A DNA stretch of 64,000 nt from Candidatus Dormibacteria bacterium (GCA_044450385.1 JBIOIZ010000002.1:15393-79392), one strand, 5' to 3'; counted from the stretch's first letter, positions 9,533-48,514 are shown. Numbers and translations: made by a program. Notes: generated by a model not told the origin, from the letters alone.

Positions 9533-10009
9533 ATGCCCCGCCGGCCCATGCGCCCCAACGAGATCTCGTCCGGAGGCGTTGTGGTGCGGCGATGCGTGGG
9601 CGGCTATGAGGTCTGCCTTGTGAACGACGCAAGATACTGGGGATTCCCCAAAGGCCACGTCGAGCCGGGAGAAACGCCAGAGGCGGCGGCGCTGCGCGAG
9701 GTCTCCGAGGAGACGGGCATCCCACTCCAATCGCTGGTTCTTCGTGCTTCGTTACCCGCAACTGAGTACGTGTACCGCCGGCCGAACCACGGTCCTCTGG
9801 TGTTCAAGCGCGTCCATCACTTCATCATCGAGGCGCCGGCTGACGTGGAGCTCCATCCCGATCCGGCCGAGATTGCTGAGGCTGCTTGGCTTGGGTTCGA
9901 TGACGCGAGAGCCCGGCTCAGCTTCAAGAGCAGCGTCGAGATCCTCGACGCGGCGAGGAGCGTCCTCGAGGCGGAACCCCCAGTGGGGACGCGGTCGAGC
10001 GCGCCGTAG
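9533..10009 (+). CDS. NUDIX hydrolase
   Basis: Nudix box GFPKGHVEPGETPEAAALREVSEETGI. Confidence 0.85.
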   Translation: MPRRPMRPNEISSGGVVVRRCVGGYEVCLVNDARYWGFPKGHVEPGETPEAAALREVSEETGIPLQSLVLRASLPATEYVYRRPNHGPLVFKRVHHFIIEAPADVELHPDPAEIAEAAWLGFDDARARLSFKSSVEILDAARSVLEAEPPVGTRSSAP

Positions 10010-10020
10010 AATCGGGCCGC

Positions 10021-11220
10021 ATGCAATTGTTCGACACCGCTCGCCAGGAGGTGGTGCCCTTCGAGCCGCGGGGCGGACGGGTCGGCATCTACGTCTGCGG
10101 CATCACGCCATACGATTCGGCGCACCTTGGCCACGCCTTCGTCTACCACGTGTTCGACGTCCTGCATCGCCGGTTTCGTGCGGCAGGGCTTGCAGTGCGA
10201 AGCGTCCGCAACATCACCGACGTCGACGACGACATCCTGCGGGTCGCACGTGAGCGCGGCATGGACTTCCGAGAGCTCGCCAGCGAGCAGGTGCGGATGT
10301 TCGATCACGATATGGCTGAGATCGGCCTCCTCCCCGTCGACGCAGCGCCGCGCGCAACCGAACACGTGGAGGAGATGGTCGACTGGATCGCTCGGCTCGT
10401 CGACGGCGGCTATGCGTATGCCGTCGACGGCTGGGTCTTCTTCGAGTCCGGCGTCTATCCCGACTACGGGCGGCTCAGCCACCTCGACCACGCCACCATG
10501 GTTGCCCTGAGCCGAGAGCGCGGCGCCGATCCCGACGACCCGCGCAAACGCCATCCCCTTGACTTCGTTCTCTGGCAGTCGTCGGCCCCGTCCGAGCCGA
10601 GCTGGCCGAGCCCGTGGGGCCCGGGCCGCCCCGGCTGGCATATCGAGTGCACCGTGATGGCCACCGGCGCGCTGGGACACCCCATCGATATCCACGGCGG
10701 GGGCGATGATCTGATCTATCCGCACCACGAGTCGGAGATCGCCCAGGCCGAGGCAGCCGGGGTCGCGCCGTACGTGCGGCAGTGGACCCACGTGGCCATG
10801 GTCAACCTCGACGGCGTGAAGATGAGCAAGTCGCTCGGCAACCTCGTCTTTGTGCGCGACCTGGTCCGCCGCGTGCCGGGCCCCGCGGTGCGTCTGCTGC
10901 TCGCGGCGCATCACTACCGGCAGTCCTGGTCGTACGCGGACAGCGAGGTCGATGCCGCGGCAGCGCGCCACCGCCGGTATCTCGCCGCGATGCAGAGTGG
11001 CGGCGCACTCAGCCACGAGGAAGCGGATCAGCACGAGCGCCGCTTCTTCGAACGCCTCGACGACGACCTCGACACACCCGGGGCGCTCAACGAGCTCGAC
11101 GCCGTCGCAGACAAGCTCTCCCGCGCCGGCATCGCGGCTGCACCCGGTACGGAAGGTCAGCAGCTGCTCGGCAGGCTGCTGGGAGTCCTCGGCGCCGAGA
11201 CCGAAGCCGTTCCCGCCTGA
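10021..11220 (+). CDS. mshC: Cysteine ligase of the CysRS/MshC family, most like the mycothiol ligase MshC
   Basis: HIGH-type HLGH, KMSKS, and EPSWPSPWGPGRPGWHIEC. The short length (399 aa, no CysRS C-terminal domain) and the ERGADPDDP segment resemble the recalled MshC (ERGGDPRRP) rather than CysRS. Confidence 0.6.
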   Translation: MQLFDTARQEVVPFEPRGGRVGIYVCGITPYDSAHLGHAFVYHVFDVLHRRFRAAGLAVRSVRNITDVDDDILRVARERGMDFRELASEQVRMFDHDMAEIGLLPVDAAPRATEHVEEMVDWIARLVDGGYAYAVDGWVFFESGVYPDYGRLSHLDHATMVALSRERGADPDDPRKRHPLDFVLWQSSAPSEPSWPSPWGPGRPGWHIECTVMATGALGHPIDIHGGGDDLIYPHHESEIAQAEAAGVAPYVRQWTHVAMVNLDGVKMSKSLGNLVFVRDLVRRVPGPAVRLLLAAHHYRQSWSYADSEVDAAAARHRRYLAAMQSGGALSHEEADQHERRFFERLDDDLDTPGALNELDAVADKLSRAGIAAAPGTEGQQLLGRLLGVLGAETEAVPA

Positions 11221-32089: not shown

Positions 32090-33763
32090 TCAGGTCGCTC
32101 TGAGCAACTCCTGCTGGAGAAGATCGAGCGGCATCGACCCCAGGTTCAGCGCATCCATGTGGAATCGCTTGAGATCGAACCCCGATCCGAGCCGAGTCAT
32201 GAGCTGACCGCGGATGTCGAGCCAGGCTCGCTCTCCGACCTTGTAGCTGATCGCCTGGGCGGGCATCCCGCAATATCGCTCGAGCTCGCTGCGTGCGAAG
32301 CCCAGTCCCACAAAGCCGCAGTACCGGGTGACGAACGGGAGCGCCGTGTCCCAGTCCCAGATGCGGCCGGGGTTGTATGCCTCGGTCTCGGGGATCGCGA
32401 GCTGGAGGTGAAGGCCGATGTCGACGACGACCCGCATGGCACGAAACGCCTGGGATGCGAGCATCCCGAAGCGGTAGTCGGGCTTCTCCAGATAGCCGAG
32501 CTCGTCCATCAACCGCTCGGCATAGAGCGCCCAGCCCTCCGCGTGGCCTGAGTAGGTTCCCAGCTGTCGCTGAAAGGTGCTGAGGCGCTCCTGGAACGTC
32601 ATGCAGAGCCCGATCTGCAGATGGTGGCCGGGCACCCCCTCGTGATACGCCACCGTGATCTCGGACCAGAGCGGAAACCGCGTCCGGGCCTTGGCGGGAT
32701 ACCAGGTGCGTCCAGGGCGGCTGAAGTCCGCTGAGGGTGCGGTGTAGTACATCGCAGCCGCAGTCCCGGGAGGCGCCTCACAACACTCGATCCGGCGTAT
32801 CTGATCCGGGATGTCGAAGTGAGTCCCGTCGAGATCGGCGATGGTCCGATCGGTCAATTCCTGCAGATGGGCAAGCAGCTTGTCGATGCCTTCGATGCTC
32901 CGCGCAGGGTCACCCTGGAGCACTACCATGGCGCCGTCGATACCCGCGCCGGGTGCGATCTGGTCGGCGGTTGCGGCCATCTCGGCTTCGATCCGATGCA
33001 ACTCATCCCAGCCCCAGGCATAGATCTCCTCAGGATCGCGGTCCATGCCGAGCCACCTGCGAATCCCGATGGCGTACAGCTCGCGGCCGACCGCGTCCGT
33101 TTCGGGGGCCTGCGGCGCGTACTCGTCGCGCAGGAAGCGAGCCATGGCGGCGTACGCATCGGTCGCGGCCTGGGCGCCCTTGCGGAGCCGCTCGCCGAGC
33201 GCATCGTCGTGCGCTGTCTGAGCTGCGATGCGCGCGAAGTACGGCGTCTCACCGTCGCCGAGACCGGCCAGGGTCGCAGCTTGTTCGGCGCAGACCAGCG
33301 CCTGGCGGCGAGGAGCGATCTGTCCGGTCGCCAGACCGTACCGGAGCGACGTCCTGAAGCCGTCAAGCGAGTCGGGAACCCGACTCATCCGGGTGCCGAT
33401 CCGTTCCCAGTCGTCCGGAGTCTCGCGAGGACCGAGGTCGAACGCCATCCGGATGAACGAGAGGGGCGAGTCGAAGTTCGACAGCTGCCGCCACGGCGCG
33501 CCGGCCCGATACCCCTCGAGCCCGGCATCGATGCGGTCACGCATGACGGCCGCGGCGATCCGATCGGCCTCGTTCTCGACGGCAGCGCTGTCGAGGTCGC
33601 GGAGGGTCCGGCGGGCGAGGTCGACCATCGAATCCACGCCGTCCGGCGAGAAGTCGGTGACCTCGTCATCGTGTCCCGGTATCCCCAGATCGGTGGCCAT
33701 GAACGGGTCGAGTGAGCAGAGCTCGTCGACGTACGAGTCGGCGAGACGGAAGACCTCGGTCAC
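32090..33763 (-). CDS. DUF885 family protein (metallopeptidase-like)
   Basis: [11 protein letters not shown] motif and typical length of 557 aa. The GTG start overlaps the gyrA stop (GTGA). Confidence 0.8.
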
Positions 33764-36219
33764 GCCTCGAGGGCAACCACCGCGCCCACCCCGGCGATCG
33801 ACGCGACGCGGTCTCCATCATCGAGCCGCATGATGATCACGCCCCTGGTCTGGCGCCCGGAGATCCGGACCTGGTCGAGCGGGATGCGGATCACCTGTCC
33901 CGACGTGGAGATCACCATGAGCTCCTCGGACAGATCTTCGACGACGCGCATGCCGACGATCTCGCCGATCTTCGGAATCGCGGTCTGGTCGACGGTGTAG
34001 ACGCCCTGGATGTTGCGGCTCTTGACCGGGTAATCACTCATCGGCGTCAGCTTGCCGAAGCCGTTCTCAGTGATCACGAGCACGTGACCCTCCGGATTGA
34101 CGATGTCGAAGCCGGCGACCTCATCGCCCTTGCGCAACCGGATCGCCCCGACACCCATCGTGTCACGGCCCATCGGGCGCACTTCCTTCTCGGTGAATCG
34201 CGAGCCCTTGCCCCTGCGAGTCACGACCAGGACCTCGTCACCGCCCGACGAGCGGCGCACCCAGTTGAGCTCATCGTCGTCTTGGAGATTGATCGCGATG
34301 AGACCGTTGCGTCGAACCGCAGCGTAGGCGGCAGCCGGGGTCTTCTTGATCTGACCGAGCTTGGTCACCATCACCAGGTACTGCTCGTCGCTGAAGACCT
34401 CCATGTCGATGAGCGCGGTGACCTTCTCGCCCTGGTCGACCTCGATGAGGTTGATGATCGGGATGCCCTTGGCCTGGCGCTTGACGTCGGGAATCTCATG
34501 GGTGCGCAGACGGAAGACGCGACCTCGATTGGTGAAGAACAGCATGTCGCTGTGCGTGCTCGCTGTGGTCGAGTGCTCGATGTAATCCTCGTCGGTCGAG
34601 CGCCGCGCACCGACGACTCCCTTGCCGCCGCGATGCTGCGCACGGTAGTTGTCGAGCGACATGCGCTTGATGTAGCCGCGATGCGTGAGCGTCACGAAGA
34701 CCTGCTCCTGGGGGATGAGGTCTTCCTCATTCATCTCGAGCTCGTCGTGACGGATCTCGCTGCGTCTCGGATCAGCGAAGCGCCGGCGGAGGTTGGTGAC
34801 CTCGTCCTTGATCACGGCGTCGATGAGCCGCGGATTGGCGAGAAGGTCCTCGAGCTGCGCGATCTTCTTGATGAGCTCTTCGTACTCCTCGCGGAGCTTG
34901 CCGCTCTCGAGCCGCGTAAGGCGCCCAAGGCGGAGGTCGACGATCGCTTTCGACTGGCGCTCGGTGAGACTGAACCGCTGTTCCAGGGCGGTCTGCGCGG
35001 ACTTCTCGTCCTGCGCCCCGCGGATGATCGCTATCGTCTCGTCGAGGTTGTCGAGGACGATCGTCAGGCCTTCGAGGATGTGCGCCCGTTCGCGGGCGGT
35101 GGTGAGCTCGTGGCGGGTGCGCCGAGTCACCACGTCGCGCCGATGCGTGATGTAGTGCTGCAGCATTGCCTTGAGGCTCAGCACCTGTGGGCGTCCGTCG
35201 ACGATGGCGAGCATCAGCGCTCCGAAGGTCATCTGCAGCTGGGTGTGCTTGTAGAGGTTGTTCAGCACCGTGTGCGGCCGCGCATTCGACTTCAACTCGA
35301 TGACGATGCGCACCTTGTCCTCACGCCCCGACTCGTCGTGCAGGTCGGCGATGCCCTCGATCTTGCGGTCGTTGACGAGCTCGGCGATCGTCTGCATCAA
35401 CCTGGATTTGTTCACCTGGTACGGCAGTTCACGGACGATGATCTGTTCTCGCCCCGACTTCGACTCCTCGAAATCGACCTGCGCGCGCATCACGATCCGG
35501 CCGCGTCCGGTGCCATACACGTTGGCGATGTCGCGGGTGTAGATGATGCCGCCGGTCGGGAAGTCAGGCCCTTTGACGATGCGGATGAGATCCTCGGTCG
35601 TGGTCTCCGGAGCGTCGATCAAACGGACCACCGCGTCGCAGATCTCGCCCAGGTTGTGGGGTGGGATGTTGGTTGCCATGCCGACCGCGATGCCGCTCGC
35701 GCCGTTGACCAGGAGGTTGGGGAGCAGCGACGGCATGACCGACGGCTCGCGCACGCCGGGGACGTTCGCAAAGTTTGGGCCGAAGTCGACAGTATCCTTC
35801 TCGATGTCGTCGACGAGGCTCATGGCCACGGCGGTCATGCGCGCCTCGGTGTACCGGTATGCGGCGGGGGGATCGCCGTCGACGGATCCGAAGTTTCCCT
35901 GCCCGTCGATGAGCGGATAGCGCATCACCCATGGCTGCGCGAGCCGGACTAGGGTGTCGTATACGGCCGAGTCACCATGGGGGTGATACTTGCCCAGCAC
36001 TTCGCCGACGACCGCGGCGCACTTCTGGTAGCGCGCCCCGGCGGTCATGCCGGTGTCCAGCATCGCCCAGAGGATGCGGCGCTGCGCCGGCTTCAGCCCA
36101 TCGCGGATGTCCGGGAGCGCGCGGCTGATGATGACGCTCATCGCGTAGTCCATGTAGGACGCGCGCATCTCCGCCTCGAGTTCGATGGGATGAATCTGTC
36201 CGGGCTCGAACACCGCCAT
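33760..36219 (-). CDS. gyrA: DNA gyrase subunit A
   Basis: Active-site region [10 protein letters not shown]. GyrA-box QHRGGKG in the C-terminal domain argues for gyrase rather than ParC. Confidence 0.93.
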
Positions 36220-37232
36220 TACGCAGTCACCTCCGCCGGGCTGCGTACGGCACCCGCGATCACCTTGCTGACACCCTGATCTGCCGCGCGCGCAGCCACG
36301 CGAATCGCATTCATGGTTGCCTCGGCATCCGACCGGCCATGGGCGATCACGACCTCGCCGGCAACACCGAGCAACAGCGCTCCACCAGTCTTCCTGTAAT
36401 CGACCCGATCCCTGAGAGGACGCAGCTTTGGCTTGAGGAGCGCTCCCCCGACCTTGCCGCCGATGCTCTTGCGAGCCTCACGGGCAATGCTCGCAAAGAG
36501 AAAATCGCCGATGCCCTCGGCAACCTTGAGCACGACGTTGCCGGTGAATCCATCAGTGACCACGACGTCGCAGCCGCCGCGGAAGATGTCCTTGCCCTCG
36601 ACGTTACCGGCAAAGTTGATCGGGAGCGCGGCGATCAGTGGATGCGCCGCCTGGACCAGCTCCGATCCCTTTTCCGACTCCTCGCCGTTGCTGAGCAATC
36701 CGACCCGGGGGCGCTCGATACCAAGCATGGTCCGGGCGTACACGTCGCCCATCACAGCGAACTGAGCAAGCCACTCCGGCTTGCAGTCGGTGTTGGCGCC
36801 CACGTCGAGGATGAACGTCTGGCCGCCCTCACTGGGGAAGGACGCGCCGATCGCGGGCCTGGAGATGCCGGGAATGCGTTTGATGGTGAACAGCGCCGCG
36901 GCCAGCATCGCGCCGCTGTTGCCCGCGCTCACCACGCCGCGCGCCAGGCCATCAGCGACCAGCGCGCAGCTGCGCACCAGCGACGAGTCCTGTTTGGCAC
37001 GGACTGCGTTCGCCGGATGCTCGTGCATCTCCACGACCTCGCGCGCATCGACGATGTCGAGCCGATCGCCGATCGCCGCTCCGGCGTCCCCGAGCTCTGC
37101 TTCAATCGTCTCACGCTTGCCCACCAGCGTCACCGTGATGCCATGCTCGCTGGCGGCGCGCACTGCACCGCGCACGATCTCTGCGGGGGCCTGGTCGCCG
37201 CCCATCGCGTCGACCGCTATCGGAAGCGGCAT
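36219..37232 (-). CDS. plsX: Phosphate acyltransferase PlsX
   Basis: [43 protein letters not shown]. One-nt stop/start overlaps with gyrB (TGATG) and gyrA (TAATG). Confidence 0.9.
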
Positions 37233-39142
37233 CAGATATCGAGGTTGCGCACGCTCGTGGCGTGGGTCTGGATGAAACGCTTGCGAGGCTCGACGTCCGA
37301 GCCCATCAGGCGATCGAAGATGTCGTCCGCCTTGAGTGCGTCCGCAACACCGACCTGCAGCAGGACTCTGCGGTCGGGATCCATCGTCGTTGCCCAGAGC
37401 TCCTCGGACATCATCTCGCCGAGTCCCTTGTACCGGGACACTTCGGTATCGCGTCCCATGGACTTGACCTTGTCGTCACGCTGGTCATCGCTGAAGGCGT
37501 ACTCGGTCTGGCGGTTCTTACCCCTGCCCTTCTCGAGCTTGTACAGCGGCGGCTGCGCGAGATAGAGGAAGCCCCCGTCGACGAGCGGACGCAGGTGGCG
37601 CCAGAAGAACGTGAGCAGCAAGGTGCGGATATGGGATCCGTCGACGTCCGCGTCCGCCATGAGCACGATGCGGTGATAGCGGAGCTTGTCCACGCTGAAC
37701 GTCTCGCCGAAGCCTCCCCCGAGCGCCATGATCAGGTCCTTGATCTGCTCGTTGCCCAGAATCTTGTCGGCCCGCGCCTTCTCGACGTTGAGGATCTTGC
37801 CGCGAAGCGGAAGGATTGCCTGGTTGCGGCGTTCGCGCGCCTCCTTGGCTGTGCCGCCTGCCGACAGACCCTCGACGATGAAGATCTCGCAGTGCGCCGG
37901 GTCGCGCTCGCTGCAGTCAACCAGCTTTCCCGGCAGCGTCGCCGACTCGAGCAGTGACTTGCGCTGTACCAGGTCGCGAGCCTTCGCGGCGGCCTGGCGT
38001 GCACGCGCAGCCGTCAGCGACTGATCGATGATCCTGCGCCCGTCGGCCGGGTTCTCCTCGAGGTACTGCATGAGTGCCTCGCTCAGCACCGTCGAGACCT
38101 GACCCGCCACTTCGCTGTTTCCCAGCTTGGTCTTGGTCTGACCCTCGAACTGCGGCTCACGCAACTTGACGCTGATCACGGCTGTCAACCCGTCGCGCAC
38201 GTCGTCGCCACTGAGGTTGGGGTCCTGCTCCTTGAGGATCGCAGCCTTGCGCGCGTACTTGTTGAGCGTTGCGGTCAGTGCGCTGCGGAACCCGGTGACA
38301 TGCGCGCCACCCTCCTCGGTGTGCACGTTGTTGGCAAACGCGAGAACGTGCTCGGTGAAGACCGTGTTCTGATACTGAAGCGCGATCTCGACGACGTTGC
38401 CGTCGATCTCCCGTTCCACGTACATCGGCTTCTGGTTGATGACGTTGCGGTTCGCGTTGAGATACCTGACGAAGGACTGAATGCCGCCCTCGAAATGGAA
38501 GGTGTATTCCTGTTCGTCGCGCTCATCCGCGAGCTGAATCGTGATGCCCTTGTTGAGAAAGGCATAGCTGCGCAGCGACGTGGACACCGTCTCCCACGAG
38601 AACTCGATCTCCTGGAATATCTCCGGGTCGGGCCAGAAGCGCACGAAGGTCCCGCGGCGGTCGGTCGTGCCGATGACCGTCACAGGTCCGTCGGGCACTC
38701 CTCGCGTGTACTCCTGGTGATGCGTCTCGCCGTCGCCGTACACCTCGACCACCAGACGCTCACTGAGCGCGTTGACGACCGAGAGACCGACTCCGTGCAG
38801 TCCACCCGAGACCTTGTAGCCCCCGCCACCGAACTTTCCACCAGCATGGAGCGTGGTGAGCACCACCTCGAGTGCGGACTTCCTGGCGGTCGGATGCATG
38901 CCCACGGGGATGCCGCGGCCATTGTCCAGCACGGACACCGACTTGTCCGCATGGAGGACGATCTTGATGGTGTCGCACCAGCCGGCGAGCGCCTCGTCGA
39001 TGCTGTTGTCGACGAGCTCGACGACGAGATGGTGCAGACCCCGAAGATCTGTGGAGCCGATGTACATCCCGGGCCGTCGGCGAACCGGCTCGAGGCCCTC
39101 CAGGATCTGAATCTGATCGGCCGAGTACGCGTCCTTGCCCAC
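37232..39142 (-). CDS. gyrB: DNA gyrase subunit B
   Basis: GLHHLVVELVDNSIDEA, HAGGKFGGGGYKVSGGLHGVG, Toprim EIFIVEGLSAGG. Confidence 0.93.
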   Translation of the reverse strand: MGKDAYSADQIQILEGLEPVRRRPGMYIGSTDLRGLHHLVVELVDNSIDEALAGWCDTIKIVLHADKSVSVLDNGRGIPVGMHPTARKSALEVVLTTLHAGGKFGGGGYKVSGGLHGVGLSVVNALSERLVVEVYGDGETHHQEYTRGVPDGPVTVIGTTDRRGTFVRFWPDPEIFQEIEFSWETVSTSLRSYAFLNKGITIQLADERDEQEYTFHFEGGIQSFVRYLNANRNVINQKPMYVEREIDGNVVEIALQYQNTVFTEHVLAFANNVHTEEGGAHVTGFRSALTATLNKYARKAAILKEQDPNLSGDDVRDGLTAVISVKLREPQFEGQTKTKLGNSEVAGQVSTVLSEALMQYLEENPADGRRIIDQSLTAARARQAAAKARDLVQRKSLLESATLPGKLVDCSERDPAHCEIFIVEGLSAGGTAKEARERRNQAILPLRGKILNVEKARADKILGNEQIKDLIMALGGGFGETFSVDKLRYHRIVLMADADVDGSHIRTLLLTFFWRHLRPLVDGGFLYLAQPPLYKLEKGRGKNRQTEYAFSDDQRDDKVKSMGRDTEVSRYKGLGEMMSEELWATTMDPDRRVLLQVGVADALKADDIFDRLMGSDVEPRKRFIQTHATSVRNLDI

Positions 39143-39445
39143 CCGCCCGGCGCCTTCCGGACGCGGGTCCGGACTGCCGTCTGAATGGGTCGTTGCGGGT
39201 CTCGTCTCTGTCTCGATCGCTGCCTCATCGGGGCGTTCGGGGCGTGCGGTGTCGGTTATTTGTGCTGCTCCGGTTGTGACGTGAGTGATGGAGAGTGGGC
39301 CAGGGGTGAAACCGCTCGATTGTTCCAGCGGGGACCGCTCAAATCGGCCGTTCCACGTACCCCTATTCTACCAGCCGGACGGCCCACTTGGCTCTTTTCG
39401 AGTGGTTCGCTGCACTAGCATCAAGGGCGTGAAGGACACCGTCCG

Positions 39446-42196
39446 TTGTGCGCCGGTCCGGCCTGGTCGAGGGCGTCGATAAAGGTGGCCACATCCACTC
39501 TTGAAGAGTACCGCCGCAAGCGCGATTTCAATCAGACCCCGGAGCCCAGCGGCGACCCGATCCCGCAGTCCGGTACAGAGACTTCGGCGTGGGAGCACCT
39601 GCCCCATGGAAAGCGCTTCTGTGTCCAGAAACACCGGGCTACACGAATGCATTTCGATTTTCGCCTGGAGCACGACGGCGTGCTGCTCTCGTGGGCGATT
39701 CCGAGGGGTCCAAGCCTCGATCCGGCCAGGAAGCGCCTGGCAGTGCAGACCGAGGACCATCCGATCGACTATGGCGAATTCGAGGGCGTCATCCCCTCAG
39801 GGTACGGCGCCGGCACGGTCATGCTCTGGGACATCGGGACGTACGAGTGGATCAAGGAAACCGCCGAGGATTTCGAGCGTTCGCTGCAGAGAGGAGATCT
39901 CAAGTTCCGCCTCGATGGCACCAAGCTCTCGGGCGAGTTCGCACTGGTTCGCATCGGTGACCGTGGACGCCAGTACGGCGGCAGCAACGACGGAAACAAG
40001 AACTGGCTGTTGATCAAGAAGCGCGATGCCTCCGTGGTCGAGGGATACGAGGCAGGCGACTACGACGTTTCAGTCAAAACCGGCAGAAGCCTGGCTCAGA
40101 TCGCTCAGGACGGAGGTGGTGATCCTCGCGAGATGCGCCGTGCCGCTCGTGTCCGTGGTGCTGCCGCAGCGGCGCAGCCCACAGTGTCCTCCCCGCTGCT
40201 CGCTCAGGCGCCCCCGCCGATGCTCGCCACGCCGGTCGAGCAGCCGTTTTCGCGGGACGGATGGCTGTTCGAGCTGAAATACGACGGCATTCGCGCCATG
40301 GTGAGCGTCGCCGGTGACCTGATACGCATCACCGGCCGGCGCGGCGGCGATGAGACGGCGCGCTACCCGGAGGCAGCGGCGATTCGTGCTGGAATCCGGG
40401 CCGGGCAGGCGATCGTCGACGGCGAGCTTGTCGTGCTCGACGCCGAGGGCCGTCCATCGTTCGAGCGGATCCAGCAGCGAATCGGCGTCAGCCGCGAGCC
40501 CGATGTCCGCCGAGTCGCGGGCGAACACCCCGTGACGTTCATAGCGTTCGACCTGCTCGAGGTGGACGGCCGCGACCTGCTCAACACCGAGCTGCGCATT
40601 CGCAAGAAGACTCTTCGCGAGACCATCGTCGACTCGCCACACATCTTGTTCGCTGAACACGTCGAGCGCGATGGCATATCGCTCTTCGAGGTGGCTCGCT
40701 CGTCGGGCATCGAGGGCATCGTCGGCAAGCGCGCCGATTCCCTGTACCGGCCAGGAATCCGCAGCCCCGACTGGGTGAAGATCAAGTCCTGGCTCAGCCA
40801 GTCGTGCGTCATCGTGGGCTATACCGCCGGACGCGGACGCCGTTCAAACCAGCTGGGCGCACTCATCCTGGCGGTGCTCGACGGAGGGCGTCTCGTCCAT
40901 TGCGGACAGGTCGGCACCGGCTTCGATGACAAGACCCTAAACGACCTGAAGGACCGGCTCCGACCCCTCGAGGTGAAGACCTGCCCACTCGACGTCACGC
41001 CGAAGACGGCAGAACCGGCGACCTGGGTCAAACCCGAGCTCGTCTGCGAAGTCCGCTTCGCCGGATGGACCCGCGACGGCATCCTCCGCCACCCCGCCTT
41101 TCGCACCCTCCGTCTCGACCAGAGACCCGAAGACTGCTACCGGGAAGTCTTCCTGAAGACCGCGCCGGCCCAAACGCCACGGCCTCCAAGGGAGCGGCCT
41201 GCGGCCACCCCCCGCGCGAGGCGCAGAGCAGAGAGCGTGCAGACGCCCGCTCATGACTCGCGACAGAACCCGGAGGACTTGCAAGCACTGGCGCAGCTGA
41301 GAACGCTGACAGGCAATGCGCATTGGGAAATCGCAGGTCGCAGACTTCCACTCACGAATCTCGATAAGGTGCTCTGGCCGGCGGACGGCATCACGAAACG
41401 GGACATGATCGAGCACTACGTCCGGATGGCACCGTACATGCTGCCCTACCTGCGCGACCGCCCGTTATCGATGCAGGTATTCCCCGACGGTATTGACGGA
41501 AAGTCCTTCTGGCGCAAGGACAAACCCACGCATGCTCCGGCTTGGATCGAGGCGTGGACGTATCACGGTGAGAAGACCAAGACGTACATAGTGGTCAACG
41601 AGGTTGCCACGCTCGCGTGGGTTGCCAACGCCGGTGTCATCGATCTGCATCCGTGGCACTCGCGCATCGATGCTCCGGAGCAGCCGGACTGGGCGGTATT
41701 CGACCTGGATCCATTCGAACCGGCAACGTTCCAGGATGTCATCGATATCGCCAAGCTCGTCAAGGCGGCGCTGGATCATTACGGCATGCATGGCGTGGTC
41801 AAGACGAGCGGCCAGACCGGGTTGCAGATCTACGTGCCCATTCGCCGTGGCCCCGACTACTCGGCGGTGCGCCACTGGGTGGAGGAGGTGGGCAGAGCGA
41901 TCGATCAGGCGGCGCCCGGTCGCGTGAGCTGGGAGTGGTCGGTTGCGAAGCGGACGGGCCGGATCCGGATCGACTACACGCAGAACATCATCAACAAGAC
42001 CCTTGCGGCGCCTTACTCACTCCGCCCTGCGCCCGGAGCTCCGGTATCGACACCGATCACATGGGCAGAGCTCGACGACCCGGAGCTCAGACCTGATCGA
42101 TGGAACATCGCAACCATCGCGAAGCGCGTCGCGGAGAAGGGGGACCTCTTCGCGCCGGTCCTGCAGGCGGACCAGGACCTTCCGCGCCATTCGTAG
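39446..42196 (+). CDS. ligD: Multidomain ATP-dependent DNA ligase D (phosphoesterase-ligase-polymerase order)
   Basis: PE domain QKHRATRMHFDFRLEHDGVLLSWAIPRGPS; ligase motif I ELKYDGIR and motif IV EGIVGK; C-terminal primase-polymerase domain with AVFDLDP. The start is uncertain (TTG 39446 or GTG 39485). Confidence 0.9.
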   Translation: MCAGPAWSRASIKVATSTLEEYRRKRDFNQTPEPSGDPIPQSGTETSAWEHLPHGKRFCVQKHRATRMHFDFRLEHDGVLLSWAIPRGPSLDPARKRLAVQTEDHPIDYGEFEGVIPSGYGAGTVMLWDIGTYEWIKETAEDFERSLQRGDLKFRLDGTKLSGEFALVRIGDRGRQYGGSNDGNKNWLLIKKRDASVVEGYEAGDYDVSVKTGRSLAQIAQDGGGDPREMRRAARVRGAAAAAQPTVSSPLLAQAPPPMLATPVEQPFSRDGWLFELKYDGIRAMVSVAGDLIRITGRRGGDETARYPEAAAIRAGIRAGQAIVDGELVVLDAEGRPSFERIQQRIGVSREPDVRRVAGEHPVTFIAFDLLEVDGRDLLNTELRIRKKTLRETIVDSPHILFAEHVERDGISLFEVARSSGIEGIVGKRADSLYRPGIRSPDWVKIKSWLSQSCVIVGYTAGRGRRSNQLGALILAVLDGGRLVHCGQVGTGFDDKTLNDLKDRLRPLEVKTCPLDVTPKTAEPATWVKPELVCEVRFAGWTRDGILRHPAFRTLRLDQRPEDCYREVFLKTAPAQTPRPPRERPAATPRARRRAESVQTPAHDSRQNPEDLQALAQLRTLTGNAHWEIAGRRLPLTNLDKVLWPADGITKRDMIEHYVRMAPYMLPYLRDRPLSMQVFPDGIDGKSFWRKDKPTHAPAWIEAWTYHGEKTKTYIVVNEVATLAWVANAGVIDLHPWHSRIDAPEQPDWAVFDLDPFEPATFQDVIDIAKLVKAALDHYGMHGVVKTSGQTGLQIYVPIRRGPDYSAVRHWVEEVGRAIDQAAPGRVSWEWSVAKRTGRIRIDYTQNIINKTLAAPYSLRPAPGAPVSTPITWAELDDPELRPDRWNIATIAKRVAEKGDLFAPVLQADQDLPRHS

Positions 42197-42230
42197 CGTG
42201 GAGCGCGGATTGCGGGTACCCTGCGACGCG

Positions 42231-42863
42231 ATGCGACGGGTGTTCCTTCCGGCTGTGCTCGTGGCGGCCGCGACCGCGATCGGGTGCGGATCGGCGTCCC
42301 CAACGGTCACGAGCACGGAGCCGACGCCCTTCAGCGTAACCCCGACGCCGGTTCAGAGCCAGACGCCCCTGGCGACACCCACCGCCATCCCGACCGCCAC
42401 CCCGACGGTGACAGCAACTGGGCCGTGCATGCCGGGCCAGTTCCAGATCGCCATCCTGAACACCCAGGGCGCCGCGGGCACCATCTACGCGACGTTCGAG
42501 GTTCGCAACGCTTCGACCGCCGACTGCTCCGAGAACGGCTACGCCAAGCTGCAGCTGCTCACCTCCGGGGGCGGTCTGCTGAACACGAGCTGGTCGAACG
42601 ACAACTCAATGGCCAGTCCGAGCCCGGTCGACCTGCCTGCGGGCACCCAACCGCTGGGAGCCACCGGCGCGACGGGACACGGCTATTTCCTGGTCTCGTG
42701 GACCGATGCGACCTGCTCCGCGGCCCAGGCAGAGATGCCGAAGTTCTGGCGGGTCATCCTGCCGACATCGCGGTTCCAGACGAATGTGGCCGATATCGAT
42801 TCGAGCATGGTGTGCGCGGGTGCGATCAAGGTCGGCCCGATCAAGTCAGCTCCCTACGTCTGA
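42231..42863 (+). CDS. DUF4232-type secreted lipoprotein
   Basis: Trimmed to ATG 42231. Lipobox AIGCGS, Thr/Pro linker, then CMPGQFQIAILNTQGAAGTIYATFEVRNASTADCSENGY, typical of DUF4232. Confidence 0.7.
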   Translation: MRRVFLPAVLVAAATAIGCGSASPTVTSTEPTPFSVTPTPVQSQTPLATPTAIPTATPTVTATGPCMPGQFQIAILNTQGAAGTIYATFEVRNASTADCSENGYAKLQLLTSGGGLLNTSWSNDNSMASPSPVDLPAGTQPLGATGATGHGYFLVSWTDATCSAAQAEMPKFWRVILPTSRFQTNVADIDSSMVCAGAIKVGPIKSAPYV

Positions 42864-42902
42864 CCGACGCCAGGATGCTCGCTTCCCAATAGAATTCGGG
42901 CC

Positions 42903-43424
42903 ATGGCAGTGCTGCTGCTCAACGCCTCGATGCAACCGCTCAACGTGATCAGTCACCGCCGGCTGGTGGTGCTCCTGACCAAGGAGCGAGTCGCGTTCGT
43001 GGATGAGGCGGCTGAACGAGCTGCTGCAGAGGCACTCGCGGGGCGCAGGTTGCCAGAAGGCGTCGTCATCGTGCGCCTGCTCCGGACCATCCACGTACCG
43101 CGCCGGTTGCTTCGACCCAACCGCCGCAATCTTCTGCTCCGCGACGATCATACGTGCCAGTACTGCGGGCGCCTCGGTACCGCCGCCGAGCTCACCGTCG
43201 ACCACGTGATCCCGGTCTCTCGAGGGGGCGCTCCGGATCGCTGGGACAACGTAGTGATCGCATGCAGGAAGTGCAACTGGCGAAAGGCGAATCACCGTCC
43301 CGAAGAGGTCGGACTCGTTCTCCGGCGCAGGCCCGTACCGCTGACGCAGGAATACGCGCACATCATCTTTCTGCGCTACCCGGAGCTCAAGGCCGCCTAC
43401 GACAGGATGCTCGCCGCGGCCTGA
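42903..43424 (+). CDS. HNH endonuclease
   Basis: CQYCG...LTVDHVIPVSRGG...NVVIACRKCNWRKANH (HNH/zinc-finger core). Confidence 0.85.
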   Translation: MAVLLLNASMQPLNVISHRRLVVLLTKERVAFVDEAAERAAAEALAGRRLPEGVVIVRLLRTIHVPRRLLRPNRRNLLLRDDHTCQYCGRLGTAAELTVDHVIPVSRGGAPDRWDNVVIACRKCNWRKANHRPEEVGLVLRRRPVPLTQEYAHIIFLRYPELKAAYDRMLAAA

Positions 43425-43486
43425 ATCGCGCCTCGCGCGTCAGACCCTCGTCCAAGCCGATCCCGCGCCTCTATACTCGAGGAGCC

Positions 43487-44347
43487 ATGCCTCGATCCAT
43501 GTGGCGCGGCGCCATCAGCTTCGGCATGGTGGCGATCCCCGTGCGGCTGTACCTGGCGACCGAATCGAAGAGCGTTTCGTTCCGGCTGCTGTGTCCAACT
43601 GATCACACGCCCGTCCGCAACAAGCGCTGGTGCCCGGAGGAGGATCGCGAGATCGGCTGGAGCGAAGCGGTTCGCGGGTATGAGGTGGGCAAGGACGAGT
43701 ACGTGGTCATCACGGACCAGGATCTCGACGACCTGCCGCTGACCACGACGCACACCATCGACATCGTCGAGTTCTGCCCGGATTCCGAGATCGAGGCGGG
43801 CGTCTACCTCAAGAGCGCCTATTACCTGGAACCCGAGGCCGTCGGCGTCAAGCCCTACGCGTTGCTCCGGGAGGCACTCGAGAAGACCGGCACCGTCGCC
43901 ATCGGCAAGATCGCACTCCGTGATCGCGAGCACCTCTGCCGCCTGGCACTGCATGAGCAGGGGCTGCTGCTCAACACGCTGCACTGGCCGGACGAGATCC
44001 GCTCCGCGGCCGAGCTGGCGATTCCCGAGCAGGCTCCTGACGTCGCCAAGAAGGAGCTGGACATGGCGGTGATGCTCGTCGAGAACATGAGCGCCCACTT
44101 CGACCCGGCGCGCTATCACGACAACTACCGCGAGGCGCTGATCCAGGTTGTCGAGGCAAAGCTGGCCAACACGCCGATCGAGCGCCCGCAGGTGCAGGAA
44201 CCCGGCAAGGTCACCGACCTCATGGCTGCGCTCAAGGCCTCGGTCGAGGCGGCGAAAACGCGGCGGTCTGAAGGCGGCGCAGCAGAGGAATCCGAGGCCG
44301 ACGACGCCGAGTCTCTGGAACCGGCCCGCCGGAGCCGGGCGTCCTGA
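43487..44347 (+). CDS. ku: Ku protein (NHEJ DNA-end binding)
   Basis: Trimmed to ATG 43487 after GAGGAG. MWRGAISFGMVAIPVRLY start and Ku core; basic/acidic C-terminal tail. Confidence 0.9.
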   Translation: MPRSMWRGAISFGMVAIPVRLYLATESKSVSFRLLCPTDHTPVRNKRWCPEEDREIGWSEAVRGYEVGKDEYVVITDQDLDDLPLTTTHTIDIVEFCPDSEIEAGVYLKSAYYLEPEAVGVKPYALLREALEKTGTVAIGKIALRDREHLCRLALHEQGLLLNTLHWPDEIRSAAELAIPEQAPDVAKKELDMAVMLVENMSAHFDPARYHDNYREALIQVVEAKLANTPIERPQVQEPGKVTDLMAALKASVEAAKTRRSEGGAAEESEADDAESLEPARRSRAS

Positions 44348-44364
44348 GGCTTCACGGGTCACGC

Positions 44365-45474
44365 GTGGCTGGGAGAGCAAGCCTGTCTCGTGCCGCCCCG
44401 GAGTCCCAGAGCGAACCTTTGCCCTTTCGATCACCGGTGCCGCCTCAGCTCCCGGGCTACATCCCGTTTGAGATATCAGTCCCCTGCGCGGAGGCGTTCG
44501 ATGACCCCGACTGGCTGTTCAGCGTCGACTGGGACGGGGCACGCGCGCTGCTCTTCATCGACTCGGGCGGCTCCGTGCGCATCCAGGGCGAACTGGCTCG
44601 TGATCTCGCGCGGCGCTTCCCTGATATCTCGACCGCCGTGGCCATCCCGAACGGCCGGGGCGCTGTCCTCGACGGTGTCATCGCCGTGCTCGACCGGGAA
44701 GGCCGTCCAGACCTGACCGGCTTCGGCCGTCGCCTCGCCGCCGGGCCGGCCGCAGCCGCTGAGCTTCCAGCGGTGTACCTCTGCTGTGACGTCCTGCACC
44801 TCGACGGGCGCGCGACGGTGGGTTGGGCCCTGGATCGTCGCCTCGATGCTCTCAGCGACCTGACCCGCCGCAACGATGTCCTCCAGGCGCCGGACCACGT
44901 GCGCGGACGAGGAGTCGCGCTCGCCGCCGCGGCGGCTGGACGGGGCCTGCCGGCGTTGCTCGCCCGGCGGGCCGCGGCTCGCTATCGGCCAGGCGTCGCC
45001 TCCCCTGATCGTCTGCGCATCGGGCTCTCGGATCAGACGACTTGCGTCATCGCGGGCGTGGTTTCGCGCCGGGCTGGCACGAGGCTCATTCTCGGAGAGC
45101 ATGTCGACGGTCGCCTGACCTTCGCGGGACACGTCGACGGGCCGCGTGATCCGCTCGTCGCCGCGTGGCTTGCGCGGCACATCGCCGACCTGAGGGTCAA
45201 CACCGCGCCACTCGAAGGGGTGCAACCCGTCAACGCGACCTGGCTGCGACCTGCGCTCACGGCGACCGTCCGGCACCACGGCCGCAGCGCTGCCGGAGCA
45301 CTCCTGCGACCGGCGCTCCTGGCGGTGCGCGACGACGTCGATCCATGCTGGTGCGTGCAACGACCCGCGGTCGCCGGGCCGGTCGAGCTGCACGCGGGGA
45401 CCCGCTTCTCGCCGACACTGCTGATGCCGCTTCCTCTGGGCGACCTTTCAGGGACACCCCAGGCGACTCGATGA
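44365..45474 (+). CDS. ATP-dependent DNA ligase-like protein with substituted catalytic lysines (predicted inactive)
   Basis: Colinear with the LigD ligase domain in this window, but motif I KYDG is DWDG, motif IV EGIVGK is PALLAR, and motif V KIK is RIG. Intact frame with strong GC3 bias. ATGA overlap with the next gene. Confidence 0.7.
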   Translation: MAGRASLSRAAPESQSEPLPFRSPVPPQLPGYIPFEISVPCAEAFDDPDWLFSVDWDGARALLFIDSGGSVRIQGELARDLARRFPDISTAVAIPNGRGAVLDGVIAVLDREGRPDLTGFGRRLAAGPAAAAELPAVYLCCDVLHLDGRATVGWALDRRLDALSDLTRRNDVLQAPDHVRGRGVALAAAAAGRGLPALLARRAAARYRPGVASPDRLRIGLSDQTTCVIAGVVSRRAGTRLILGEHVDGRLTFAGHVDGPRDPLVAAWLARHIADLRVNTAPLEGVQPVNATWLRPALTATVRHHGRSAAGALLRPALLAVRDDVDPCWCVQRPAVAGPVELHAGTRFSPTLLMPLPLGDLSGTPQATR

Positions 45475-46304
45475 CCACGTCGGTCCTGATGTGCCGGCCC
45501 GATCACTTCGGGATCGAGTACGAGATCAACCCGTGGATGCACGTTGCGGTCGAGGTTGACCACGCGCGGGCGACGTCGCAGTGGGATGCGCTGTACCGGA
45601 CGTACCTCGACCTCGGGGTGGTCGTGGAATTGGCGACACCCGTCGCGGGTCTGCCTGACATGGTCTTCACGGCCAATGCGGCAGTGCTCTGGGATGACCG
45701 TGCCGTGCTGAGCAACTTCCATCATGCCGAGCGGCAGGGTGAGGAGAAGCACTGGCGCGAGGAGCTCGAGCGCCTCGGCTTCGATGTTCACGAACTGCCG
45801 CGATCGCTTTCGTTCGAGGGCGCCGGGGACGCCCTCTTCGTCGGTGATCGCCTGTTCTGCGGTTACGGGTTCCGGACCGACCGCGAGGCACACCATCCGG
45901 TGGCGCGCATCCTCGAGGTCGAGGTCGTCTCACTCCAGCTGGTCGACCCGCGCTTCTATCACCTGGACACCTGCTTCTGCCCGCTCGACGCCACCAATGT
46001 CCTCGCGGCGCCCGCCGCGTTCGCCCCGGAGTCGATGCGGTTGATTCGCGAGCTGGTGCCGAATCTGATCGAGGTGCCCGTCGAGGTGGCGGCCGGGTTT
46101 GCGTGCAACGCGATGCCGCTCGGGCAGCAGGTGCTCTCTTCGCTGACGATCTCGCAGATGGAGGCTCCGCTCCGGGCGGCCGGATACACCCCGATTCCGC
46201 TCCCCATGGGGGAGTTCCTCAAAGCCGGTGGTGGGGTCCGCTGCCTCTCACTGCCACTCGGCGAGCGAGGTCGCGGCCGCACCCGGGATGCCGCACAAGG
46301 CTGA
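45471..46304 (+). CDS. Amidinotransferase/DDAH-fold (guanidino-group-modifying) enzyme
   Basis: LMCRPDHFGIEYEINPWM N-terminus and C-terminal GGGVRCLSLPL (catalytic Cys context), recalled from the family. Confidence 0.7.
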   Translation: MTTSVLMCRPDHFGIEYEINPWMHVAVEVDHARATSQWDALYRTYLDLGVVVELATPVAGLPDMVFTANAAVLWDDRAVLSNFHHAERQGEEKHWREELERLGFDVHELPRSLSFEGAGDALFVGDRLFCGYGFRTDREAHHPVARILEVEVVSLQLVDPRFYHLDTCFCPLDATNVLAAPAAFAPESMRLIRELVPNLIEVPVEVAAGFACNAMPLGQQVLSSLTISQMEAPLRAAGYTPIPLPMGEFLKAGGGVRCLSLPLGERGRGRTRDAAQG

Positions 46305-46360
46305 GGGTAGATCCAACAACCTCTGAGCGTTTTCCCAGACTTCCGCGCGAAGATGGTCCG

Positions 46361-47086
46361 GTGACCACACCAACCCCTGGAGAGCCGAACCGAGTTCTCG
46401 TCGTTGACGATGAGCATGCCATCACCGATCTTGTGGCGATGGCCCTCAAGTACGAGGGTTTCTCGGTGCAGACCGCCGGCACCGCAAAGCAGGCCCGTCA
46501 CGCGGTGATGGACTTCCGCCCGGACCTGATGATCCTGGACGTCGGACTGCCGGACGACGACGGCTTCACGCTCGTGCAGCGTCTGATCACCGACGGCATC
46601 AAGGTCCCGGTGATCTTCCTCACCGCCCGGGACGCCACCGAGGAAAAGGTCCACGGGCTGACCATCGGTGGCGACGACTACGTGACCAAGCCCTTCAGCA
46701 TCGAGGAGCTGGTCGCGCGGATCCGTGTCGTGCTCCGTCGCCACAATCCAGACGGCGCGGCGGCGAACGGCAAGCTCGTCCTCCACGACCTGGAGCTGGA
46801 TGACGAGACGCATGAGGTCTTCCGCGCCGGGGAGCCGGTGGAATTGACGCGCACCGAGTTCCGACTGCTGCGCTATTTGATGATGAACACGGGCCGCGTG
46901 CTGTCGCGCTCGCAGATCCTCGATCACGTCTGGGACTACGACTTCGGTGGCGACGCCAGCGTGCTCGAGACGTACATCAGCTACCTCCGCCGCAAGGTCG
47001 ACAACGTCGACCCGCCGCTCATTCACACGGTCCGCGGGATCGGCTACGTCATTCGCGTACCGCGCACCGCATCGGCGCATGCGTAA
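46361..47086 (+). CDS. OmpR-family response regulator
   Basis: GTG 46361. Receiver VLVVDDE...MILDVGLPDDDG...KP, and winged-helix LTRTEFRLLRYL...GIGYV. Confidence 0.9.
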   Translation: MTTPTPGEPNRVLVVDDEHAITDLVAMALKYEGFSVQTAGTAKQARHAVMDFRPDLMILDVGLPDDDGFTLVQRLITDGIKVPVIFLTARDATEEKVHGLTIGGDDYVTKPFSIEELVARIRVVLRRHNPDGAAANGKLVLHDLELDDETHEVFRAGEPVELTRTEFRLLRYLMMNTGRVLSRSQILDHVWDYDFGGDASVLETYISYLRRKVDNVDPPLIHTVRGIGYVIRVPRTASAHA

Positions 47087-47116
47087 GCGGCGCGGGCGAT
47101 GTTCTCAGGACGATAG

Positions 47117-48514
47117 ATGTCTCTCCGACTCCGGCTGCTGCTGACCCTGGCGCCGCTGTTCATCCTCGGACTCGCGGCCGCCGACGCCGGGACGTACGTG
47201 GCGTTGCAGAGTTCGCTGCTTCAGAACGTCGACAATCAGCTGGTCGCACTCCACGACGGTGCGGAGAACGCCCTCGGGCACTCGGGGCCACCTGGGCAGT
47301 TCGACAACGGCGGAGGCAGCGGCCAACTACCCCCAGGCACATATGGCGAGCTCGTCAGCGCATCCGGGGCTCTGAGCGGCGGCGGCCTGTACGGCGGCTA
47401 CGTCCAGCCAACGCCATCGCATCCTGTGTTGCCCGCAACGATCTACAAAGACGCGAGCACGACGCTGCTGACGGTTCCCGGAGTCGGAACGTGGGATTCG
47501 TACCGAGTCCTCGTCACCCCGGACTCGACTCAGCCCGGCACTGATGTGGTGGTCGCGATCCCGCTCGACGGCGTCAACACCACCCTGGGCACGCTCCTGC
47601 TCTTCGAGATCGCCATCAGCGGCGGCATCACGATTGTCGTCCTGGTCGTCACGTGGTTGCTGGTTCGTCGAGGGATGCGTCCGCTCGAACGCATGGGTGC
47701 CACCGCGCGGTCGATCGCCGCAGGCAACCTCGGTCGTCGGGTATCGCCGTCCAATGAGCGCACTGAAGTCGGCCAGCTCGGCCTCGCCCTGAACGGAATG
47801 TTGAGCCAGATCGAGCGAGCGTTCGCCGAGCGCGACGTCACCGAGCAGAAGTTGCGCCACTTCGTCTCCGATGCCTCACACGAGTTGCGCACGCCGCTCA
47901 CGTCGATGCGCGGCTACGCGGAGCTGCTGCAACGAAACCCGGACATGACCCGTGACGATGTCCTGCTCGCGGTCCGTCGCATCGAGGACGAGACCCGGCG
48001 CATGGGGCTGCTGGTCGACGACCTGCTCCTGCTCGCGAGACTGGACCAGGGACGTCCCCTGGACCGGGCACCGGTCGATCTCACCTCGATGGTCAACGAC
48101 GCCGTGAGTGACGCCCGCGCCGCCGACCCGGGGCGCTCTGTCAGCGCCCGGATCGAGGCGCCGATCGTGGTCACCGGCGACGACCTGCGCCTTCGCCAGG
48201 CTGTGGCCAACCTCGTCCGAAACGCGCTGGTGCACACGCCCGCAGGGAGTCCGGTGGAAGTTGCTCTGCATCCGGAGAACGAGCACGTTGAGATCGATGT
48301 CATCGACCACGGTCCGGGGGTGCCAACCGCGCAGCGCGAGCGGATCTTCGAGCGATTTCATCGTGCGGATCCGCTGCGCAGTCGCGACCAGGGCGGCAGC
48401 GGGCTGGGCCTGAGCATTGCGACGGCGGTCGTCACCGCGCATGGCGGAAGGATCAGCGTCACCGACACACCCGGCGGGGGCGCCACCTTCCGGATCGAGC
48501 TTCCGGCGGCGTGA
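47117..48514 (+). CDS. Sensor histidine kinase (HAMP-HisKA-HATPase)
   Basis: H-box FVSDASHELRTPLTS, N/G boxes including GGSGLGLSIA, and two TM segments with a periplasmic loop. Confidence 0.9.
   Translation: MSLRLRLLLTLAPLFILGLAAADAGTYVALQSSLLQNVDNQLVALHDGAENALGHSGPPGQFDNGGGSGQLPPGTYGELVSASGALSGGGLYGGYVQPTPSHPVLPATIYKDASTTLLTVPGVGTWDSYRVLVTPDSTQPGTDVVVAIPLDGVNTTLGTLLLFEIAISGGITIVVLVVTWLLVRRGMRPLERMGATARSIAAGNLGRRVSPSNERTEVGQLGLALNGMLSQIERAFAERDVTEQKLRHFVSDASHELRTPLTSMRGYAELLQRNPDMTRDDVLLAVRRIEDETRRMGLLVDDLLLLARLDQGRPLDRAPVDLTSMVNDAVSDARAADPGRSVSARIEAPIVVTGDDLRLRQAVANLVRNALVHTPAGSPVEVALHPENEHVEIDVIDHGPGVPTAQRERIFERFHRADPLRSRDQGGSGLGLSIATAVVTAHGGRISVTDTPGGGATFRIELPAA

Follow-up and report, generated by a model that had tools for sequence, protein, structure and literature searches.

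A 64,000-nucleotide stretch of DNA from a Candidatus Dormibacteria bacterium (GCA_044450385.1, JBIOIZ010000002.1:15393-79392) contains, between positions 39,446 and 46,304, a row of six genes on one strand that includes ligD and ku, the core genes of bacterial nonhomologous end joining (NHEJ). We refer to the whole stretch as the window and count all positions from its first letter. The genome of origin is an uncultured Dormibacteria metagenome-assembled genome of 3.3 Mb in 191 contigs that is 90% complete. An earlier reading, made by a model from the sequence alone (the sequence-only reading), had described the row as an expanded NHEJ locus in which genes for a lipoprotein and an HNH nuclease separate ligD from ku and two further coupled genes follow. 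Three of the six genes belong to end joining: those encoding LigD, Ku and a lysine-free, dead ligase. The genes are as follows.

39446-42196, plus strand: ligD, PE-Lig-Pol enzyme with motif I ELKYDG intact; start perhaps at 39485 (Pfam and NCBIfam matches)
42231-42863, plus strand: DUF4232 lipoprotein, an optional passenger (PF14016, 28.6 bits; lipobox)
42903-43424, plus strand: HNH endonuclease, 173 amino acids (PF01844); phylum-wide single-copy gene, not NHEJ-specific
43487-44347, plus strand: ku (TIGR02772, 292.9 bits)
44365-45474, plus strand: lysine-free pseudo-ligase, 369 amino acids (alignments, 1VS0, AlphaFold2 (AF2) model, Foldseek match to 6NHX, lysine counts)
45471-46304, plus strand: probable ArgZ-like arginine dihydrolase of the DDAH/amidinotransferase fold, 277 amino acids (6JV0 match; catalytic Cys context GGGVRC kept)

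In strand, domain content and spacing, the open reading frames (ORFs) agree exactly with the sequence-only reading. From ligD to the DDAH-fold gene the gaps measure 34, 39, 62 and 17 bp, and the last two genes overlap in ATGA (-4 bp); 303 bp separate the block from gyrB. The core of bacterial NHEJ is present: LigD combines PE, Lig and Pol domains (PF13298, PF01068, PF04679 and PF21686; 511 bits against the TIGR02776 cut-off of 373) with an intact motif I, and the sole Ku of the genome lies far above the TIGR02772 cut-off of 150. Of the four extra genes, the pseudo-ligase is the one for which the proposed expansion holds. For the HNH and ArgZ-like genes it finds no support, and the lipoprotein gene is a passenger.

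The lysine-free paralogue behind ku

The invariant unit within the block is ku together with a stand-alone paralogue of the LigD ligase domain directly downstream. This order is found in all 24 genomes of the genus, in 10 of 10 sampled genomes from other genera of the family and on five distant contigs, with gaps of 4-85 bp between the called genes and no insertion in any locus inspected. Among the sampled genomes, the pseudo-ligase occurs only alongside Ku and always directly 3' of ku, in the window's own family (f1) and in families f3 and f5; in family f4 the same place is taken by a lysine-keeping form. The pair is also found apart from other members of the block. At two loci (L039 and L040) it lies behind Band7 and AIM24 genes, with no ligD or HNH gene within the ±8 kb shown, and in three genomes (G271, G319 and G195) ligD lies 55 kb away from the pair or on another contig. 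This is the linkage expected of an accessory gene dedicated to NHEJ, and it bears out, across the genus and other genera of the family, the earlier assignment of the lysine-less ligase paralogue to ku.

"Lysine-less" proved to be literally true. The pseudo-ligase has no lysine in its 369 amino acids, whereas the ligase domain of the LigD encoded at the same locus has 12; of the 108 full-length proteins in the family, 55 are likewise lysine-free and 39 contain a single lysine. Alignment to the same-locus LigD, to ~150 other ligases and to the M. tuberculosis LigD structure 1VS0 locates the changes within the catalytic motifs. In motif I, ELK-YDG of LigD is replaced by SVD-WDG, with D55 falling on K481 of 1VS0 (HMMER alignment). 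Motif IV changes from EGIVGKR to LLARR, and motif V from WVKIK to RLRI(G/A), which reads RLRIG in the window protein. We considered a K-to-W change in motif I and ruled it out, as the alignment to many ligases and 1VS0 places the lysine before the W or Y, which makes the change K-to-D. Across the family, the nucleophile position is mostly D, with E in two members and N or G in a few.

A lysyl-AMP intermediate is impossible, because the pseudo-ligase is without any lysine. Of the features expected in an ATP-dependent DNA ligase, the nucleophile lysine of motif I and the lysines of motifs IV and V are both missing, and the protein scores below the cut-offs of three ligase models (TIGR02779, 112.7 against 227.75; PF01068, 24.4 against 26.2; PF04679, 25.5 against 27.5). 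In the source annotations of the collection searched, proteins of this family are called "bifunctional NHEJ protein LigD" or "ATP-dependent DNA ligase". Such labels overstate ligase content, and NHEJ genotypes in Chloroflexota and Dormibacteria may be miscalled as a result. We also tried, and rejected, the idea that lysine was lost to evade pupylation, as the genome contains no Pup ligase (PF03136) in its 90% complete assembly.

Despite these losses the fold is that of a ligase. The AF2 model shows a nucleotidyltransferase (NTase) plus OB fold with a predicted TM-score (pTM) of 0.77 and disordered segments at residues 1-41 and 337-369, and Foldseek superposes it on M. tuberculosis LigD 6NHX (E = 9e-24, TM-score 0.71). 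Both disordered tails carry a motif: PLPFRSP in the N-terminal tail of the window protein, where the family consensus is LPLxLP, and F.PT[VL]L..LPL in the C-terminal tail.

Weak, sub-cut-off matches to the ligase hidden Markov models, together with the loss of all catalytic lysines, might be taken to mean that the pseudo-ligase is a decaying pseudogene and the block a matter of inherited synteny alone. This explanation is close to refuted. The frame is intact in ~140 clusters at 90% identity (~24 representatives at 50%), down to 45% identity between proteins, and the family alignment contains 66 invariant columns, including those of the C-terminal F.PT.L..LP motif. The fold prediction is a confident one, conservation extends to the terminal motifs outside the catalytic core, and the place behind ku is constant despite rearrangement of the surroundings. 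The pseudo-ligase is catalytically dead yet kept under purifying conservation.

Putative transcription units and neighbouring genes

The sequence-only reading implied a larger functional unit: a six-gene NHEJ operon in which the HNH nuclease would trim DNA ends. In such a model the DDAH-fold enzyme would work stoichiometrically with the pseudo-ligase, perhaps as a modifier of arginines in that arginine-rich, lysine-free protein or in Ku. The shared strand, the short gaps and the ATGA overlap between the last two genes speak for this model, as does the recurrence of the order ligD-HNH-ku-pseudo-ligase-DDAH in distant family members. Furthermore, the DDAH-fold gene and the D-type pseudo-ligase occur together in 24 of 25 genus genomes and are both absent from the sister family. 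The sequence-only reading had named an order confined to this genome as grounds for giving up the model; the gene order proved to be conserved outside it, across the genus and in distant family members, so that objection does not arise. However, all 24 genomes of the genus are syntenic throughout the region, with gyrA-plsX-gyrB divergent from ligD-lipoprotein-HNH-ku-pseudo-ligase-DDAH and followed by response-regulator and histidine-kinase genes, and synteny at the genus level by itself says little about linkage.

Insertions and conserved promoter-like elements divide the block. At three loci of the genus (L026, at 7297-10949, L036 and L037), two fused ABC-transporter genes on the opposite strand, 3.7 kb in all, lie between HNH and ku, and in one distant relative this place is occupied by opposite-strand TM2 and DUF2752 genes, giving four loci with such inserts in total. 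Separate -10-like hexamers precede ligD, HNH and ku. These elements, and the other features of the spacers, are as follows.

37232-39142, minus strand: gyrB, divergent from ligD across the 303-bp gap
39416-39421, plus strand: -10-like hexamer TAGCAT, the same in 8 genus members although its flanks vary; a conserved GTG (39429) follows after 7 nt
39429-39482, plus strand: mini-ORF of 17 codons (MKDTV...), GTG to TAA (gyrB-ligD spacer alignment and sequence)
42890-42895, plus strand: -10-like hexamer TAGAAT, 7 nt before the HNH ATG
43472-43477, plus strand: -10-like hexamer TATACT, 9 nt before the ku ATG

The hexamer before HNH is TAGAAT, TATGAT or TACAAT in family f1 and CACAAT in the sister family f2, always 7-9 nt before the start and in spacers that are otherwise unconserved. 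At all 17 loci compared, TATACT stands 9-10 nt ahead of the ku start. It is kept in L040, where the upstream genes are unrelated, and in L026, L036 and L037, where the ABC-transporter insert lies upstream; within the genus, a TTGACA-like hexamer (TCCACA or TGCACA) is found ~16-17 nt further upstream. The 17-bp spacer between ku and the pseudo-ligase gene contains no -10-like element. These patterns suggest three units, [ligD-lipoprotein], [HNH] and [ku-pseudo-ligase-(argZ-like)], and the geometry of the hexamers would fit leaderless or near-leaderless mRNAs. Given the inserts and the separate hexamers, a single six-gene operon is unlikely, and the histories of the HNH and DDAH-fold genes point the same way.

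The HNH gene is readily recognised (PF01844, 53.7 against a cut-off of 21.4), and its suggested role in NHEJ end processing did not survive comparison with other genomes. All 41 genomes of the order carry it in a single copy, and 12 of them lack both Ku and LigD. A single copy is likewise present in 127 of the 151 genomes sampled from the GTDB phylum, some of them 1.4-1.5 Mb in size and some without Ku. In the sister family its neighbours are rapZ on one flank and ETF-beta, ETF-alpha and FHA genes on the opposite flank; in family f3 it is likewise unlinked, and no HNH gene was found within 8 kb of 80 Ku/LigD loci from other lineages. Because of this phylum-wide retention, the different context in the sister family and the absence from those 80 loci, we regard HNH as a core gene whose adjacency to NHEJ genes is specific to this family; it lacks the linkage that the pseudo-ligase has. 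Nor did a full-text literature search find any paper that links LigD or Ku with an HNH nuclease.

Within the genus, HNH proteins are 94-98% identical, compared with 73-87% for LigD and 65-90% for the pseudo-ligase, and the function of this nuclease is probably important. Its N-terminal region contains an invariant VLLLNAS.QP.NVIS.RR. The AF2 model (predicted local distance difference test score 48.8) is too poor for fold classification. Stand-alone PF01844 proteins such as Geobacter Gmet_0936 (PDB 4H9D) have the HNH core, the Cys pairs and DH..N in common with it; the protein described here adds a strongly conserved N-terminal region of ~80 amino acids and a C-terminal helical region. It also differs from mobile or restriction-type HNH genes in being single-copy across the phylum.

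The DDAH-fold gene has a similar independence. The protein matches PF19420 with 56 bits against a cut-off of 23 and aligns over its full length with the N-terminal domain of Sll1336 (6JV0, E = 1e-69), with FTANA, HLDTCF and GGG.RC unchanged, so both the fold family and the catalytic Cys, His and acidic residues of an arginine dihydrolase or DDAH are in place. It shares these active-site segments with ArgZ/Sll1336, and differs in being a stand-alone protein of 277 amino acids without the C-terminal domain of ArgZ. The equivalog for Mtb-type DDAH is narrowly missed (NF045659, 282.4 against 300), and NF052232 by more (270.7 against 450). We consider the gene to be probably an ArgZ-like arginine dihydrolase and a metabolic neighbour. 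Counter to its description as a coupled NHEJ gene, it occurs in genomes without Ku or the pseudo-ligase (G132 and G186), is unlinked to ku in family f5 and is missing from one genome that has ku and the pseudo-ligase (G195). In other genomes it lies 119 kb (G263) or 5 kb (G319) from the pair, is separated from the pseudo-ligase gene by PhoU and PHO4 genes (L038), or stands 1-1.9 kb away (four further genomes). The 4-bp overlap belongs to this genus; in the more distant relatives compared, the two genes stand ~50-100 bp apart or have other genes between them. No DDAH match was found in the 80 Ku/LigD loci of other lineages, and ArgZ, the nearest characterised relative, acts on free arginine. 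Taken together, we give the model of a six-gene operon with end-trimming and arginine-modifying enzymes only a small chance of being correct. Adjacency alone is no ground for counting HNH or arginine-dihydrolase genes as repair factors.

The lipoprotein (DUF4232, 28.6 against a cut-off of 27; lipobox LVAAATAIGC) had already been taken for a passenger, and this was borne out: its gene is missing from L038, L041, L042 and G159 and present in L043.

The start of ligD is uncertain. The mini-ORF opens with the conserved GTG at 39429 and its stop (39480-39482) falls 2 nt ahead of an in-frame ligD GTG at 39485; in L027 and L028, a version 30 nt shorter puts the GTG of the mini-ORF in frame with ligD. 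The ligD start may be 39446 or 39485, or the mini-ORF may act as an upstream ORF followed by re-initiation. On the gyrB side of the same spacer, ~150 nt of non-coding sequence (39225-39375, minus strand) are near-invariant in comparison with L024, L025, L028, L030 and L032. A minus-strand TAGAAT (ATTCTA on the plus strand, 39365-39370) upstream of the conserved stretch implies a gyrB 5' leader of ~210 nt. The spacer has no Rfam match, and RNAalifold found no covarying pairs in the gyrB leader.

Several further observations concern the surroundings. The gene plsX is wedged between the gyrase genes (gyrB-plsX-gyrA, 33760-39142, minus strand), an arrangement kept across distant Dormibacteria, including L038, L041 and L043; the gyrA of L038 and L041 (1238-1239 amino acids) contains an intein with a LAGLIDADG domain. 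One contig (L033; G005:C2:1-20000) carries two copies of the entire ligD-lipoprotein-HNH-ku-pseudo-ligase block, inverted relative to each other and with numerous frame breaks, which is probably a long-read assembly chimera and not biology. A minus-strand ORF of 373 amino acids (45959-47080) overlaps the ArgZ-like and response-regulator genes and matches no family model, and for these reasons we treat it as probably a shadow ORF. L043 has a called minus-strand gene of 373 amino acids in the equivalent position between these two genes, and it too matches no family.

Ku-adjacent ligase paralogues across Dormibacteria and Chloroflexota

To place the pseudo-ligase in a wider context, we ran a profile search of 1.8 billion representatives and fetched loci from reference genomes and from the class. 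The motif I lysine is missing in 44 of the best 150 hits. In every Dormibacteria family with Ku that was sampled, a ligase paralogue lies next to ku and has a conserved L..LP[LFI] tail at its C-terminus; three families have D, A or R in place of the lysine, and one retains it. The variants, by lineage, are as follows.

Family f1 (the window's own): gene after ku with SVDWDG; C-terminal tail ..LPL
Family f3: gene after ku with EVAW(D/N/S/G)G; C-terminal tail QLPRLP[LI]
Family f5: gene after ku with EVRWDG, then directly ligD; C-terminal tail LPQLPF
Family f4: gene after ku with EVKWDG, lysine kept; C-terminal tail LTRFPF
Several Dehalococcoidia and Chloroflexia: Ku-adjacent gene with ELMWGG (K-to-M); no C-terminal tail

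Maximum-likelihood analysis groups the ligase domains of fused LigD proteins in a clade in which all keep the lysine. The lysine-less forms fall outside it, interspersed with a few lysine-keeping, Ku-adjacent forms. At least two changes of lysine state have good support; counted at the minimum, there are four. The C-terminal tail motif is found in 23 of 44 lysine-less and in one of 45 lysine-keeping stand-alone representatives. The canonical motifs that bind the beta clamp, QLxLxL or QLSLF, occur in four of the 44 and two of the 45 representatives, respectively, and both PLPFRSP of the window protein and the family consensus LPLxLP are without the Gln. The resemblance of LPLxLP to QLxLxL might hint at a link of the N-terminal motif to the beta clamp, and we mention it only as a lead.

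The dead copy is always an addition to the active ligase and never its replacement, because a full LigD accompanies Ku in all 29 Ku-bearing genomes among the 32 class genomes sampled, with PE, Lig and Pol parts. How these parts are arranged differs widely. In family f5 (L128, L129, L136 and L137), ku is followed by an R-type pseudo-ligase and a ligD with PE and Lig, and the Pol domain has its best matches on different contigs. Family f4 keeps its PE, Lig and Pol parts in a cluster apart from ku. The architecture of NHEJ genes within the class Dormibacteria is very fluid.

The pattern of substitutions bears on whether the ligase fold has acquired a new enzymatic or nucleotide-sensing activity, such as binding or hydrolysis of AMP or ATP, or the processing of 5'-adenylylated ends. 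Arguing for this, D57, G58, R60 and D142 of the pocket are still in place, and R201, R202 and R216, the products of conservative K-to-R changes in motifs IV and V, are invariant. Most members of the window's family also have an acidic residue at the nucleophile site. Counter to this, other families of the class have A or R at that site and Dehalococcoidia have M, so no new catalytic residue is common to all, and no known activity of the ligase fold works without the lysine. We think it improbable that the protein has acquired a new activity.

A possible third component of end joining

We favour an interpretation in which the block consists of about three transcription units that came to lie side by side in this lineage and the pseudo-ligase most likely acts as a non-catalytic partner of Ku, a reading that we judge probable from gene order and protein sequence. 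The ligD gene, with the optional lipoprotein gene behind it, would supply the catalytically competent PE-Lig-Pol enzyme, HNH would be a single-copy phylum gene whose role is unrelated to the presence of NHEJ, and ku and the pseudo-ligase gene would form a tight, conserved pair to which the ArgZ-like gene was appended in this genus. The pseudo-ligase is a copy of the LigD ligase domain that has diverged, kept the NTase plus OB fold and lost the capacity to form lysyl-AMP. It would be made together with Ku from ku's own promoter and would join Ku-bound DNA ends as a third, non-catalytic NHEJ component. There, the DNA-encircling ligase fold, with some of its phosphate-contacting positions present as Arg, could hold or recognise a 5'-phosphate end or nick. 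The motifs of the disordered tails may bind Ku, LigD or possibly the beta clamp, or may link Ku with LigD or a different factor, with sealing left to LigD.

Several points weigh against this interpretation. The K-to-R changes in motifs IV and V and the acidic residue at the nucleophile site could reflect retained nucleotide binding or new catalysis and not a pure scaffold. Conserved order within one bacterial class is partly inherited synteny, and gyrA-plsX-gyrB and the two-component system are likewise conserved neighbours of the block. The putative promoters were recognised as conserved hexamers; a generic sigma-70 scan of 39000-47200 gave no match on the plus strand and one on the minus strand, and no terminators were found there.

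A dead ligase made alongside Ku might also act as a dominant-negative decoy, one that, by sitting on Ku or the DNA end, would keep mutagenic joining by LigD in check until conditions such as dormancy or desiccation change. The dead ligase fold and the co-encoding with Ku are compatible with this, and the terminal motifs could compete for the site by which Ku recruits LigD. Sequence data do not separate inhibition from scaffolding. However, class-wide co-expression of an inhibitor from the ku unit seems less economical than a positive accessory role, and we consider a decoy rather unlikely.

If the pseudo-ligase is indeed a partner of Ku, a bolder proposal is that NHEJ in Dormibacteria and related Chloroflexota has three components, with the pseudoenzyme as an obligatory adaptor that would dock through the N-terminal LPLxLP or QLxLxL-like motif and the C-terminal L..LP[LFI] motif. 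We advance this tentatively, as a plausible extension that falls somewhat short of being probable. The repeated loss of the adenylylation lysine (to D, A, R, M or L) would mean that a non-catalytic role was already the main asset of the ancestral ligase partner of Ku, and parallel inactivations in neighbouring lineages strengthen the case for a third component. A class-wide, ku-linked protein with a ligase fold would then be a non-enzymatic part of a pathway that is taught as a minimal set of Ku plus LigD. It would also provide a natural experiment, in which the share of the ligase fold in end synapsis can be considered apart from sealing. In a full-text literature search we found no description of an inactive ligase or pseudo-ligase partner of Ku, and inactive ligases are not mentioned in a comparative survey of NHEJ (PMC7719229).

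Compared with canonical bacterial NHEJ, as in M. tuberculosis (Rv0937c/Rv0938) and B. subtilis (YkoV/YkoU), the locus shares one Ku and one three-domain LigD encoded close together on the same strand. It differs in that the gene for a dead ligase domain is fixed behind ku, and in that ligD is separable from this pair in relatives. The pseudo-ligase itself has the NTase plus OB fold of the LigD ligase domain (1VS0, 6NHX; TIGR02779), with ~27-32% identity and colinear motifs I-VI. Unlike that domain, it has Asp in place of the nucleophile Lys, Arg, Gly or Ala in place of the motif IV and V lysines and no lysine elsewhere, and it carries additional disordered tails at both termini, each with a conserved Leu/Pro motif.

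The closest parallels in function may lie in eukaryotes, where accessory factors dock on Ku via short C-terminal motifs. The likeness to Lig4, XLF and PAXX is one of functional analogy, in that a ligase fold may serve a non-catalytic role; there is no homology to XRCC4, XLF or PAXX. Catalytically dead Lig4 supports synapsis and repair (PMC3549972, PMC9638927, PMC10858965). In contrast to Lig4, the inactive form described here is the product of a separate, dedicated gene that exists beside the active ligase. If the three-component proposal is correct, the pseudo-ligase would represent a bacterial counterpart to the structural role played by Lig4 and XLF-type factors.

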